From positions 2,666,001 through 2,730,000 of the forward strand of contig OZ024747.1 of assembly GCA_964016885.1 (NCBI GenBank): 64,000 bases of DNA, given 5' to 3'. The notes below the pieces were generated by a model. That model was not told the origin of the DNA. It made no database searches and saw only the letters and a list, made by a program, of their open reading frames with translations. The DNA comes from Eledone cirrhosa. Its lineage: Eukaryota. This document shows positions 2,182 through 54,398 of this stretch, piece by piece (within the stretch, counting starts at the first letter, position 1; every line of letters begins with the position of its first letter). The position numbers and the translations under genes were made by a program.

Positions 2182-4282
2182 ATATATATATATTTATATC
2201 TGTGTTTTTAACCGTTGGTCAATCAATGGTGCACATTGATTGCCAAATAAATTAACTATGGAGATATAAAAGATACAGAAGCGAAAACCAACAATATAGT
2301 GAGTGTATTCTGTTATTATTTCTGGCAATATTATTACAACAATATGACCCTCCTCAAGTATAACAATACATATATATATATATATATAGCATCATCATCA
2401 TATATATATAATTTCTGATGATTTAGTGTTAAAGAATAAAAACTAATGATAAAATAAAAATATATTTTAAGAAATGAGCCCCCCGAGGGTGTATGGCCCA
2501 AAGCTATACCTTATTTAGCTTATAGGTAAGTCCAGCACTGTCCGCCGAGACCCTGTCCCACATCATATGACTTGTACAAGACTTTTCTCTTTTGCTTAGG
2601 CCAATGTTAATTAAATCAGCAGTGGTGAGTGAATGAAAGAATTATTATATCAGTTCTAAGAAGCAAGAATGACAACTATGACATGAAGTTAGTTGAAGGC
2701 TAGGATTTTATGATAAGCTAACTTCTAACCTTTACAAAGACACGATTCAATTAATGTATTGCAATAAAATGAACAGATTATTATTTTCCTTCACCAAAAG
2801 CAACAGAAAGTTGTTGCATGAAATTCATTGTAACATCTGTCTAGAAATTCTTAATACTATGAAATTCATATTAATTTTCTGAGGTAGGTGGAAAAGTCTA
2901 CATTATTTTAATAATGCAACAATGCAATACCAGAAATAATGATTTAAGATGTCGTCCATTTAATATATGATTAATTACTTATACCAGTAATTTAATGTTA
3001 TTCTATTTCATTGCTCGAATCCCTTTATTAAAATTATATTTCTTTGAAAATTCTCATTGGTCTAAATATTCTCCTCAGTTCAGAAACTTAGCAGAGAATC
3101 TTCATTATCATCATCATCACGATTGTCGTTTTAATGTCTGCTTTCCCTGCTAGGAAAGTTAAACAATTAACTCCAAGTATTCAAGGAGAATGTGAAGTTT
3201 GATTGGGTTGACAGAAACCTGCTAAATAATGTTTTAAAAATACAAATAATTGCTTTTTTAGATTTACACAAAGCTAGAAATTAGGTTGGAGGTTGGATTA
3301 TTGTCAATTAAATTGACCCAAGTATTTAACTGGTACTTTATTTTATCAAACAAATATTCAAATACTCCCCATGGCATATTATCATATTTTATTGTTTTAT
3401 TGCTTTTAAAAATTACAAACTCTTATAATCTCTACCTTCTCATTTTCTACTCTATGATTTCTTTAATGGCTTTCGGCAACAATCTTTCTCATTCAACAAG
3501 AATATAAACAACAAATGGAATATATTGTAAAAACATGAAATAAGGAAGGCAAAACATATATCCTAAATTATCTGATTATTTTCATATAATCATATTCTAA
3601 CAGAAATATTGCTTTATGAAAAGTTCAGTAGCAATCTAAGGAGGTGGAATTCAATGTTTCTTTTCCTATCTTATTTTGATATATCTGTGAGGATTTTCTC
3701 AGAATCAAGAAATCTATAATGAAATCTTTAGATGATATTTTTTTTGATTTAGAAATTTCTTTATTTCATCCTTAATTTCTTTTTTAAATGTGTATTTCTT
3801 AAATTGTAAATCGATAAAAATGTAGGAAACCTATATTGTTTGTTTTTCTGAGAAAGATCTATATGTTGTGTATTTATCAACAGTGAGTTGAGCAAGTGTA
3901 CCATTTAGAAAACGGTATAGAAAATATTTCAAAATGTCATATTTAGGTAAATATTTATATATATTATAAAAAATATATAAATGGTATAACTATCTCAGAA
4001 AATATCTTGAATAATTGTACATATGTTTTTTTAAATTTCACATATGTAAAACAATATATATCAAAAGATTTTAAAACTCTGCAATGTATATGTATATATA
4101 TATATATATATATATATATATATATATATATATATATATATATATATATTATATATGTGTAGGAGGTGAGTTTTATTGTAGCACAATAAATCAATGCAAA
4201 TATCGGATAAGTAGCACTCTACATTTTGTAGGACTGGAGTATAAATAATATAAGATCAAAAGATGGTTAAAAGAGTTCCAAG

Positions 4283-4350
4283 TATTTTATTATGCACATT
4301 TCAAAAACAAATATCATCATGGGATATCTGCGTTTTCATCAGATAAAATA
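4283..4350 (-). ncRNA. Type I hammerhead ribozyme (opposite arm)
   Basis: Minus strand reads TATTTTAT-CTGATGA-AAACGCAGATATC..GATATTTGTTTTT-GAAA-TGTGCA-TA|ATAAAATA. Confidence 0.78.
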
Positions 4351-4466
4351 GGGATACATGATATGAAGCTTAAAAAACACTTGTGAATAGTGAAGTTTTA
4401 AATCATATGTTGATTTAAAACTTCACTATTCACAAGTGTTTTTTTAAGCTTCATATCATGTATCCC

Positions 4467-4538
4467 TATTTTTATCTGACGAAAACGCAAATGTCATCGC
4501 ATGATGATATTTGTTTTTGAAATGCGCATAATAAAATA
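4467..4538 (+). ncRNA. Type I hammerhead ribozyme
   Basis: TATTTTTAT-CTGACGA-[stem II GCAAATGTCATC/GATGATATTTGT]-GAAA-TGCGCA-TA|ATAAAATA; palindromic stem III ATGCGCAT; AUA cleavage after 4530. Confidence 0.82.
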
Positions 4539-4919
4539 CTTGGAACTCTTTTAACCAACTTTTGATCTTATATTATATATATATATGTATATGTATATAT
4601 ATATATATATTAAGCAAAAGACCAATAGTGTTCAAAAAGCCAGTACAATGTGGTAGAAAAATACGAAGAGCAAAGGAAGACAAATAAAACAAAACAGTAA
4701 TCTTTTATGCAGTGTATTTTACATGATATTTCAGGTTTATTACACATACTTTGCAATCTGATTTAGACCATATTCAAAGTTACTGCTCTTCTAGACAGGT
4801 CAGGAATGATCACACATTGTTCATGTGCTCCAACGTTTGGCATGGATTTTAACAGCTGAATTTCCTGTTCACCAGCAACACCTTACACTGTGTATTGGAT
4901 GCATTATGGTTTAAATACA

Positions 4920-51139: not shown

Positions 51140-51436
51140 ATATATATATATATATATATAATATATATAATATATATGTTGTATATGATATATATACGTA
51201 TATGTGTATGTGCTTTGTGTGTATCTATGTGTTTGTGTGTGGACGTGTAATTAGTGTATGAATATTATTGTTAGTGTTATTCTGCTTTCATCTATATTTT
51301 GCTAGTGAGCTTAAGAAGGAATTCTGATTCATTCTACAGAACTCATAATAATCTGGTCATGCTTGTGCTATGAATCAACTGTCCATTCTGTAATCAGAGA
51401 AAATGAGACCACATTTAATGTACACATATATATATT

Positions 51437-52047
51437 GATAAACATATACATACTGTCATGATAAACACATACATACTGTCATGATAAACACATACATACT
51501 GTCATGATAAACACATACATACTGTCATGATATACACATACATACTGCCATGATAAACACATACATACTGTCATGATAAACACATACATACTGTCATGAT
51601 AAACACATACATACTGTCATGATAAACACATACATACTGTCATTATATACACATACATACTGTCATGATAAACACATACATACTGTCATGATATACACAT
51701 ACATACTGTCATGATAAACACATACATACTGTCATGATATACACATACATACTGTCATGATAAACACATACATACTGTCATGATAAACACATACATACTG
51801 TCATGATAAACACATACATACTGTCATGATAAACACATACATACTGTCATGATATACACATACATACTGTCATGATAAACACATACATACTGTCATGATA
51901 AACACATACATACTGTCATTATATACACATACATACTGTCATGATAAACACATACATACTGTCATGATAAACACATACATACTGTCATGATAAACACATA
52001 CATACTGTCATTATATACACATACATACTGTCATGATAAACACATAC
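51437..52047. repeat. 23-bp minisatellite, about 26 copies
   Basis: Unit TACTGTCATGATAAACACATACA with variants GATATAC and TTATATAC. Confidence 0.95.
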
Positions 52048-54203
52048 CATACACTTACACATATACATGTATACATACCCATATGCTACAGTTTACATAT
52101 ACACACAAAAATCTATACCTCCATCAATAAGTGCAATAATTTATGAGTTAATATTTTTCCTTCCATTTGACTTCAATTATATCAAAAATACACTTGAGAA
52201 ATGTATGAATGTCACATAATCTCAATATTTTCCCCCTAAAAATGTGTAGTTTACTGTTTTCCTAAGAGATCAATACATCACTTCTGTTTGTACAAAGTCA
52301 ATAAAGCAGACTTTGCATGCAAATGGTTACATATTATATTGCCAAATCTAAGCACTAAACTACATCAGCTCTTTGATAATTTACAGTTGTGAGTTTGATT
52401 CCTGCCAAGATCATCTTAGTGTTTAAGCCCCAACAGTTAATGTAATAAATACTTAGTTAGCCAATAAAAGATTACAGCTGAGCTGGTGTGTTGAGATAAT
52501 AAACCCTACAAACATTCAAAGTCTGGCTTCTGTTGGTCAATAACTACTGGCTAATAACTTGATAATGATAAAAATGAGGGTGTAGGTGAGATTAATTAGT
52601 GTATTTTAGTTTCTGTTATGGACAGATTGAACACATTTACATCTAGATGAGACTTTTGATATCAAATTTAGAATAATAATATCATTCCTATTCCCTTTAA
52701 CATCATCCTTTTTCTCCCCTAAACTTTATCACTCATTATTCCCATAAACATTATGATCCTTACTTTCCTACACATTATCAATCTGACATCTCTAACTACA
52801 GAAAGTAATGATATGAAAATTAGTTTAGCTGATTGAATAGTTTATCAGCATGGTCATACACCAAACAAGATGTCATAAAACACTCTCTCTCTCTCTCTCT
52901 CTCTCTCTCTCTCTCTCTCTCTCTCTCATCATCTCTCACTATTATAAGCAAATGCGTGCCTATGTGTTGGCCACCCCCAATCCATTTAAAGAGGAGAAAG
53001 AATTCCTTGTGCAACAGTGTAACATTGACTCATATTATAATTGTGTTTCTATACTTGTGGTCTAATGGATTAAGGTACCATGCACTCAGAATAAATATAC
53101 ATATGTAGTCATTCACCAGAAGAAGATATTTACATATGAAGAAGACTGATGATGTTACTGGAAGAACATATACATGATTGAGTTAGACTAACATGTGACA
53201 AGAAATTTGAATAATTCCAATCTATTTCCTAATATTCTTCGTATTGTAGTGTATTCATGTTTTTAACTTTACAAATACTTCTATTTTTATTGAAAGACTT
53301 TTGGAAGATATTAGAGTTTAGCATCACCTGCTATGTCTTTCAAGAACAGATATAAGTTCATAATTTGGTTTCTAATATGAATACTGAAGATTATCCAAAA
53401 TAACTTCTCACTACACCTGGGATGGGCAACTGTTTTCGACTAGTCGACCACATAGGATGTGTCTCATCATATGGTGGGCCTCACTATGAAAAATTTCAAG
53501 GCAATTTTGATTAGGCATGCCATTGAGAAAGCCAAACAGGGTGCATGCAGCTCACGACCCACAGTTGTTCATGACTACACTAAACACACGTGGGTTAAGC
53601 AGCATCTTATACAATGGAAAGTGTTGTAGAAATTATGTTCTGTTGGGATTTATCTATTTCATAAAAATATATTGAGTATTTGGTTAAAAAATGGTCTTCT
53701 TTAAATATAAAAGGCATATTTGCATCAAGGTATCTTTTAACTGCTGTAAATTATATATATAATATGACAAATATAAAATATTATATATATGTCATATTGT
53801 CTATATATATATACAATATGTCAAATTCATTCTTTTATTTCTCCGTCCATTTCAATACAGTTACAATGGTATAATGGTATAAACAACATACATAGAGCTT
53901 CTTTCACCTTACCAAAGATAATAGTGAAGTACTACATATATATATATATATATATATATATATATATGTGTATATATATATATATATATATATATATATA
54001 TATATATATATATATATATATATATATATATATATATATATATGTATATATATATATATATATATATATGTATATATATATATATATATATATATATATA
54101 TATATATATATGTAAATATATATATATATATATATATATATATATATATATATATATATATATATATATATATAAATATATATATATGTAAATATATATA
54201 TAT

Positions 54204-54398
54204 ATAGGAAAAGAGTCAGGACCCCGATGGCTGAGCTCCAGCTGTTTCAACAGCTGCATTCAGATCTAGCTGCCAAAACGGTTGGAGCTCAGCCGTTGGG
54301 GTCCTGACTCTTTTCCTATTACCCACTCTACTACCGTAAGCATTGAGTACTCTGGTGTGTTATGGTCCACCTGGTTTCTTACTACACTTTCTTTGTTA
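54204..54398 (+). mobile_element. Small fold-back element, family A
   Basis: Arms 54204-54240 and 54283-54319, same family tail to 54398, (TA)n flanks. Confidence 0.75.

Follow-up and report, generated by a model that had tools for sequence, protein, structure and literature searches.

The window analysed here is a stretch of 64,000 nucleotides from Eledone cirrhosa (GCA_964016885.1, contig OZ024747.1, positions 2,666,001–2,730,000, forward strand). Seven loci in it share a layout in which (TA)n tracts on both sides enclose an arm, its inverted counterpart and a tail at one end, which the initial annotation had described and which we verified at each position (Table 1). These loci sort into five families of Penelope-like retroelements (PLEs), A–E. 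As annotated, the tail-less arms of three family A copies stop at the same last bases (..TTCCTAT), and the exception at 30097-30490 holds, with tails on both arms and arms that are just 87% alike; it probably derives from two templates or from two separate events.

Table 1. Insertions and features in the window (positions are those of the window)
Feature	Position	Strand	Description
Family C insertion	4158..4576	.	85-nt tail (~4158-4242) on - arm; + arm tail-less; palindromic junction near 4410
Family C hammerhead cores	4336-4342; 4476-4482	-; +	In insertion 4158-4576
Family C bulged hairpin	4216-4240	-	In insertion 4158-4576
Family A insertion	27966..28087	.	- arm tailed, + arm tail-less; junction at the hammerhead cleavage triplet
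Family D insertion	28107..28298	.	- arm tail-less, + arm tailed; hammerhead represented by its 3' half alone
Family D hairpin	28252-28271		In insertion 28107-28298
Family B insertion	28316..28490	.	- arm tail-less, 31 nt; + arm tailed, hammerhead core 28349-28355
Family B exception	30097..30490	.	Both arms tailed; ~145-nt spacer between
Family A insertion	41405..41560	.	- arm tail-less, + arm tailed; bulged hairpin 41489-41512
Family E tail	45411..45545	-	135 nt
Family E long-loop bulged hairpin	45461-45541		Starts 4 nt past the tail-less site
Family E tailed arm	45546..46673	-	Exact reverse complement of 50012-51139 (1128 nt, 100% complementary)
Family E tail-less arm	46674..51139	+	~4.4 kb, the longer arm; endonuclease, microsatellite-rich 3' UTR, pLTR
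5'-truncated ORF, putative Hydra-type PLE	46659..47699	+	Linker and C-terminal GIY-YIG-type endonuclease
Family E type I hammerhead motif	50931..51085	+	10-bp stem I; core CUGAAGA at 50941; predicted cleavage before 51076
Family A insertion	54204..54398	.	- arm tail-less, + arm tailed; 79-nt tail 54320-54398

Coding capacity and classification of the families

The proposed link to autonomous PLEs is borne out, as each family connects to an RT or GIY-YIG open reading frame (ORF): A, C and D to homologous ORFs in several copies, and B in one copy. Links seen in the family A copies L044 and L052 were non-contiguous and were discarded. The families had been called unrelated; the ORFs linked to A–D instead align with the family E protein at ~30–60% identity over the aligned stretches. 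The intact family E ORF, found many times elsewhere in the genome, encodes 813 amino acids with FDI, YRDD and YIG motifs, and combines RT and GIY-YIG endonuclease in a single frame. Pfam and PDB comparisons of this ORF gave no significant match; its Atlas neighbours carry HTH_animal, GIY-YIG and RVT_1 domains. Partial tandems that form pLTRs are present as tandem 6.06-kb units in family E and as read-through junctions into the ORF in family A.

The family E protein has RWR at residue 37 and DKT at 115 and lacks G.K[FY]; RWR and DKT also occur in a family A copy. Further along are CNCRNKTNC at 673, a CxCX5C linker, and CRLC at 771 and CNH at 799, which flank the conserved E and N. Together with the hammerheads, the C-terminal GIY-YIG and insertion into (TA)n, these motifs match the description of the Hydra clade (RW[K/R], DKT, CxCX5C linker, CxxC and CxH on the two sides of E/N; PMC8557442), to which family E is assigned by motifs. 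A first assignment to the Neptune clade was replaced on the basis of the clade motif definition and the family E motifs. The family E unit spans ~6.06 kb, a long 3' UTR included, and departs from the published tendency of Hydra elements to be generally <3 kb, and the tails here (79–135 nt) exceed the published 30–40 nt (PMC8557442).

Each of the five families carries a type I hammerhead motif, for which self-cleavage is predicted. Our own descriptor matched copies of C, E, D and B, and the family A motif is a U3-A8 core variant of a kind reported earlier (PMC4209133). No hammerhead was among the matches listed by Rfam scans, which gave low-complexity, miRNA-like matches below the gathering score, and minimum-free-energy folding, applied to four short stretches, showed no preference for the hammerhead structure (z of −1.95 to +0.6). 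On the evidence of ORF links, hammerhead and inverted 5'-truncated copy with a one-sided tail, and in A and E also of pLTR tandems, families A–E are EN+ PLEs.

End points, arms and hairpins

The tail-less arm had been predicted to stop at a fixed site, and it does: among 175 sampled family A elements, 171/269 ends lay precisely at either of two positions, 0 or +79, which chance does not explain; the reference sequence used for this count itself ended at +79. Tails measure ~79 nt in A, 75–81 in B, 85 in C, 95–100 in D and 135 in E. The 54-nt tail of the copy at 28107 is short for family D, other copies of which reach ~+95–100. Enrichment of (TA)n at the ends was also confirmed, the next 10 nt being (TA)n-like at 77/94 tail-less and 65/83 tailed family A ends (~80%, compared with 6.1% of positions in 18 stretches of 10 kb chosen arbitrarily); family E ends, too, lie in (TA)n. 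Candidate target-site duplications numbered 5 informative cases among 41 family A pairs, within the null range (mean 3.1, maximum 7).

In nearly all two-armed copies a tailed end stands opposite a tail-less one, which adds to the published work that we surveyed. Genome-wide exact patterns of family A gave 547 tail-less/tailed, 6 tail-less/tail-less and 17 tail/tail pairs, so that 547/570 (96%) have one end of each kind, where ends that chose independently would do so in ~50%. A local family A sample held 66 asymmetric and 3 symmetric pairs, with an end outside the two bins of the classifier in 28/97 pairs. Hand tallies gave 36 asymmetric pairs, 1 complex and 1 ambiguous for family E (first 100 of 4599 end-motif matches, one contig), 10/10 asymmetric pairs for C and 14/15 for D. 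In family B, asymmetry was clear in just 11/17 pairs. True double-tailed copies occur, at 30097-30490 and in L312, L317 and L324.

The two arms of young family E insertions were identical over 153 nt in 27/34 cases, as against 6.3% between insertions; in family A, which is old, arm identity is modestly higher within copies (0.86) than between them (0.79). Either arm can be the longer. Of 40 family E junctions tallied by hand, the tail-less arm was longer in 16, the tailed arm in 11 and neither in 13; the corresponding family A counts are 27, 17 and 22. Some tailed arms consist of the tail alone (L241, L235, L071 and L087). Solo tail-less copies with (TA)n at both sides also exist (L202, L236 and L237), and 21/30 family A solos have neither an inverted fragment nor a piece of tail within 200 nt. 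The 5' ends of arms gather between −51 and −70 in A and between −203 and −208 in E, upstream of the hammerhead cleavage site; the idea that arms mostly end at that site, a hint from two window copies, was dropped.

One of the two starts had been placed at the RNA 3' end, which is not supported. Element sequence in families E and A runs past the tail end to a second bulged hairpin and the ORF; judged from this sequence, both priming sites are probably internal. The tail-less and the tailed end points are each marked by a like hairpin at equal distance, a bulged hairpin lying 4–7 nt past each end point (the second examined in A and E; background 0.175%).

Probable twin priming and its alternatives

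These are 5'-truncated insertions of Hydra-type PLEs in (TA)n, and we consider it probable that each two-armed copy was made by two target-primed reverse transcriptions that start from opposite DNA ends, each at its own fixed site inside a single RNA. That there are two priming events, one per DNA end, was already proposed, and the asymmetry, the arm lengths and the solo tail-less copies support it. The endonuclease would nick both (TA)n strands; one 3'-OH would prime right before hairpin 1, giving the tail-less end, and the other right before hairpin 2, giving the tailed end, each helped by 2–4 nt of TA-like microhomology. The RT primed downstream would displace the upstream cDNA, so that both arms copy the same stretch, and the two cDNA 3' ends would then join head to head through short microhomology or template jumps. 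For the elements of 120–550 nt, priming would take place in the 5' pLTR, with run-off at a family-specific RNA 5' end that is a candidate transcription start.

The strict asymmetry and identical arms would also follow from a fold-back, in which a single priming at the tail end yields a cDNA that folds over and serves as its own template, the hairpin so formed is opened by the endonuclease at the tail-less site and joined to the other flank, and a later one-sided deletion at the palindrome centre makes the arms unequal. Such a course accounts for the symmetric junctions of family E (13/40), and the tail is ascribed to EN-mediated resolution in PMC8557442. It nevertheless requires kilobase one-sided deletions in very young copies, as the tail-less arm is the longer in 16/40, including the window copy and arms that bear tandems (L229–L231); it can hardly produce clean solo tail-less copies and gives no reason for two end points equally distant from like hairpins in the RNA. 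We regard it as unlikely, and favour twin priming on one RNA owing to the asymmetry, the arm identity, the fact that either arm may be longer and the solo tail-less copies. Primings on two separate RNA molecules that stem from one source locus and are brought together by an RT dimer would make strand displacement unnecessary; the PAc protein is a predicted dimer (PMC11167929), and the discordant arms of 30097-30490 are of the kind expected. Yet the arms match within 27/34 family E insertions despite a polymorphic family, and free RNAs offer no obvious reason for one start site of each kind, which makes this account improbable.

Inheritance of the layout from palindromic non-autonomous masters, MITE-like or retrozyme-like, would suit the great abundance of short copies (5227 exact 19-mer matches in family A) and the gathering of junctions at family hotspots. 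Against it, the junction varies from copy to copy, head-to-tail hammerhead arrays were not seen at the loci studied, and ORF-bearing copies of 4–12 kb obey the same end rule, which largely refutes the version for long copies; we judge it highly improbable. Mirrored flanks at one family E locus (L162+L163) recall a fold-back artefact of assembly or reads, but left and right flanks differ elsewhere, arms have diverged in old copies, and contigs of run X6, which has another organism code and belongs to another study, share the inversion junction and the tail end into (TA)n, in one contig each; an artefact can practically be dismissed.

Several observations sit less easily with twin priming. Among the symmetric junctions of family E (13/40), 4 lie far from the hotspot, and fold-back predicts such junctions directly. 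Identical arms are compatible with self-copying or later homogenisation. Tailed-arm stops of family A show no clear pile-up at the internal priming site. For PAc in vitro, start sites did not differ between the strands (PMC11167929). Family B pairs are less strict, double-tailed copies are real and arm identity in old family A is modest.

More tentatively, twin priming may be obligate and coupled in Hydra-type PLEs, with an RT pair binding a single RNA at its two tandem bulged hairpins, each subunit engaging one of the nicked (TA)n ends, and strand displacement duplicating the arms. If so, one rule would cover the tail, the inverted pLTR and the ~10^5 short hairpin-tail elements that sparse sampling suggests for the genome.

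Relation to known elements

The initial annotation proposed a distinct PLE integration mode. This is not supported, as the inverted arm, one-sided tail and (TA)n bias are described as typical of EN+ PLEs, including Hydra (PMC8557442, PMC3846280), and two RT starts bounding a tail have been shown in vitro (PMC11167929). Craig et al. (2021, PMC8557442) describe inverted 5'-truncated copies and a tail at one end as general PLE features and call the origin of the tandem and inverted structures and of the tail open; their account of the Hydra clade neither counts asymmetric ends nor mentions a hairpin signal. A precedent for the proposed priming is PAc, a Poseidon element of Anolis, which in vitro cuts AT-rich DNA on both strands and extends each of them (Frangieh et al. 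2024, PMC11167929). As here, two internal RT starts bound the tail, and hammerhead cleavage is not needed. PAc differs in belonging to another clade and in starting within the ORF in an AC-rich stem loop, and that account draws no connection from the pair of starts to the opposite ends of a single insertion, nor to the inverted arm (PMC11167929). Copies of Penelope elements in Adineta vaga such as Pen2a_Av likewise have an inverted pLTR, an optional one-sided tail and palindromes at the inverted junction, but are explained by self-priming on an antisense template and have a 31-bp tail and visible TSDs of 8–10 bp (Arkhipova 2013, PMC3846280). Our search, which covered mostly freely accessible literature, found no PLE twin-priming mechanism, no coupling between asymmetric ends and no paired hairpins; such a model may be given in the early studies of Penelope and Xena or in supplementary material to PMC11167929 or PMC8557442.

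The 96% one-of-each rule, the single-template arms and the two like hairpins together yield a sharp biochemical prediction on the open PLE question. As family E is young and has many intact ORFs, this prediction can be tested in the existing in vitro format.

In L1 twin priming, the position of the internal start varies and the inverted segment is not known to be duplicated, whereas the PLE starts here are both fixed and the arms usually duplicate each other. Shared with L1 are priming by both target ends on one RNA and cDNAs joined by microhomology to give an inversion; L1 starts at one 3' terminus and one internal site (PMC2912911), unlike families E and A, in which both appear to be internal.

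Non-LTR retrozymes resemble the short copies in being abundant, hammerhead-bearing pLTR derivatives, but are built of head-to-tail tandem units (Li, Clavereau and Pollet 2026 preprint). Tandem units with a complete hammerhead each, which define them, are absent from the window copies; these are inverted pairs, head-to-head truncations that are continuous with ORF-bearing elements. Many short hairpin repeats of this genome that an annotation might list as MITEs would be products of retrotransposition.

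Inverted-arm insertions of Penelope-like retroelements

Five families of Penelope-like retroelements (PLEs; families A-E) are inserted in (TA)n tracts of the 3.0-Gb Eledone cirrhosa genome with an architecture that is a genuine, already known PLE signature. Seven loci in the window have paired arms, outward 3' ends running into (TA)n and an unpaired extension (tail) on one arm, as the initial annotation described; the double-tailed exception at 30097-30490 is also genuine, with an arm-to-arm likeness of only 87%. In the young family E element (45411-51139), the 1128-nt arms are exact complements, the tail is 135 nt in length, and the tail-less arm extends for 4.4 kb compared with 1.26 kb for the tailed arm.

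The ORF remnant of this element (46659-47699) recurs at 100% identity in 150 scored genome places, many within 830-codon open frames, and the full family E protein (813 amino acids) is encoded in tandem units of ~6.06 kb. It has RWR, DKT, CxCX5C, CxxC and CxH and lacks GxKF/Y; judged by motifs, family E fits the set that section 11 of PMC8557442 gives for the Hydra clade, although its unit exceeds that paper's 'under 3 kb'. The proposed link to PLE ORFs extends to the other families: the distance from a homologous endonuclease to the downstream arms is ~0.8-0.9 kb in family A (mutually aligned long copies), 0.8-1.15 kb in family C (four loci) and ~1.6 kb in family D (5/14 loci), and one insertion supports the link for family B. 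A descriptor search predicted type I hammerhead motifs in copies of B, C, D and E, and a putative motif in family A has a U3-A8 core, for which there is precedent (PMC4209133); hammerheads were not found among the Rfam matches shown.

Paired end types and proposed internal start sites

For family A, the first 100 of 5227 exact matches to a 19-mer that ends short of the tail-less site (position 0) led to a sample of ~90 loci, to which bystander copies were added. Among 269 ends (175 elements), position 0 accounts for 88 and +79, the tail end, for 83, which bears out a fixed end point for the tail-less arm; (TA)n follows ~80% of these ends, against a background of 6.1%. Candidate target-site duplications number 5 in 41 pairs, no clear excess over the null (mean, 3.1).

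Whole-genome exact patterns (gap of 50-95 nt) identified 547 family A loci with one tail-less and one tailed end, 6 with two tail-less ends and 17 with two tails, whereas independent end choice would make about half symmetric. Twenty of the 23 symmetric loci were fetched, two others had already been sampled and one is a (TA)n-spanned match; several of those inspected are partial tails or chance matches. In the local sample, 66 pairs are asymmetric and 3 symmetric; a further 28 remained unclassified and 3 were left out of the count. In family E, the first 100 of 4599 matches, tallied by hand, comprise 36 asymmetric pairs plus one complex and one unresolved case; pairs are asymmetric in 10/10 cases in family C, 14/15 in D and only 11/17 in B. 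No paper listed by the literature searches, which covered mainly openly accessible main texts, states this one-of-each rule.

Two symmetric copies have unusual flanks. A double-tailed family A copy (G000:C28:66106979-66107700) has a near-duplicated 20-nt unique flank on each side, with (TA)n between flank and element, a hint that insertion may itself add or lengthen some of the (TA)n. In family E, one copy (L162+L163; G000:C3:362802001-362822000) lacks a tail at both ends and lies between mirrored flanks; it is possibly a fold-back duplication or an assembly error.

One synthesis had been proposed to start at the RNA 3' end. Family E tandem junctions, however, do not stop at the tail end but lead into the 5' region and the ORF; in family A, the tail end followed by RCTC has 58 matches, most continuing into one fixed sequence, after which an ORF follows in 8/20 fetched loci. 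Because element sequence continues beyond the tail end in both families, both proposed starts lie inside the element. A bulged hairpin pattern (RCTC-stem-loop-stem-TN-GAGY; background, 0.175%) starts 4-7 nt beyond the tail-less site in 5/9 window tails, with all five families represented, and in 59/88 family A tails. It also starts 7 nt beyond the tail end in family E and 4 nt beyond it in 9/20 family A loci. The inner stems vary among families with pairing kept.

Probably one template and two syntheses

Family E arms are identical over their last 153 nt in 27/34 insertions, compared with 6.3% between insertions; in 1 of the 7 non-identical cases an arm is shorter than this stretch. Such identity suggests one RNA, self-copying or later homogenisation. 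Self-copying from the tailed end would never leave the tailed arm shorter, yet at resolved junctions the longer arm is tail-less in 16, tailed in 11 and neither in 13 family E cases (hand tally), and in 27, 17 and 22 family A cases, respectively. One-sided palindrome deletion could blur this test. Clean tail-less solo copies occur between (TA)n tracts. Counting against two syntheses, symmetric junctions are common and, in family A, the internal site shows no accumulation of tailed-arm stops. On balance, the probable mechanism is coupled twin priming on a single RNA, from two internal sites that are each marked by a hairpin, and quantitative support for it is what is new here.

The distinct integration mode suggested by the initial annotation is not upheld: the signature is known for PLEs and defines no new integration class. 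Passages of PMC8557442 describe, for Naiad and Hydra elements, an inverted truncated copy, an often one-ended tail of 30-40 bp and a (TA)n bias, and assign the tail to endonuclease resolution. The same layout is reported in PMC3846280, where self-priming is proposed. PMC11167929 demonstrates cutting and extension of both strands, with two internal reverse transcriptase (RT) starts bounding the tail, and L1 twin priming (PMC2912911) is the mechanistic analogue. Two of the three parts of PMC13282606, an octopus repeat annotation, contain no description of the layout.

Other sequence accompanies some arms. The two arms of one family A copy are separated by an RT-coding stretch of ~108 nt (L134:4894-5001; FDIENYY motif, by eye) that represents a template jump at the junction, and L217 and L225 have similar inserts. 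At G000:C1:30692030-30709427 (L194-L196), a short family E arm with a tail has a related PLE ORF beside it in inverted orientation; two families may have inserted here as a chimera.

Both family E arms have a 5' stop hotspot at -203 to -208 (window ~50934), at the A of an initiator-like TCATT word immediately 5' of the hammerhead core; the hotspot is a candidate transcription start. Among run X6 contigs, from another organism code and study, one has an inversion junction at -205 and one has the tail end running into (TA)n.

Other features of the window

Additional features of the window and the evidence for them
Feature	Position	Basis
SINE-like repeat, 310 nt, tRNA-like head	60626-61453, 15496-15806, 29760-30045, 44841-45150	Head read by eye
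Large cadherin-repeat exon with transmembrane-like segment, protocadherin-like	35229-37298	Pfam Cadherin
Near-perfect hairpin, 120 nt, among microsatellites	10795-10915	
Imperfect palindromic repeat region, 19-nt spacing	55700-56350	
23-nt tandem array	~51420-52050	

Remnants at 54498-54920 (-) and 40784-41221 (-), which had no match in a Pfam scan, resemble a DNA transposase and an RTE-type LINE. Two copies of the SINE-like repeat form an inverted pair flanking a TA/GA tract, and the near-perfect hairpin may be another truncated inverted insert.
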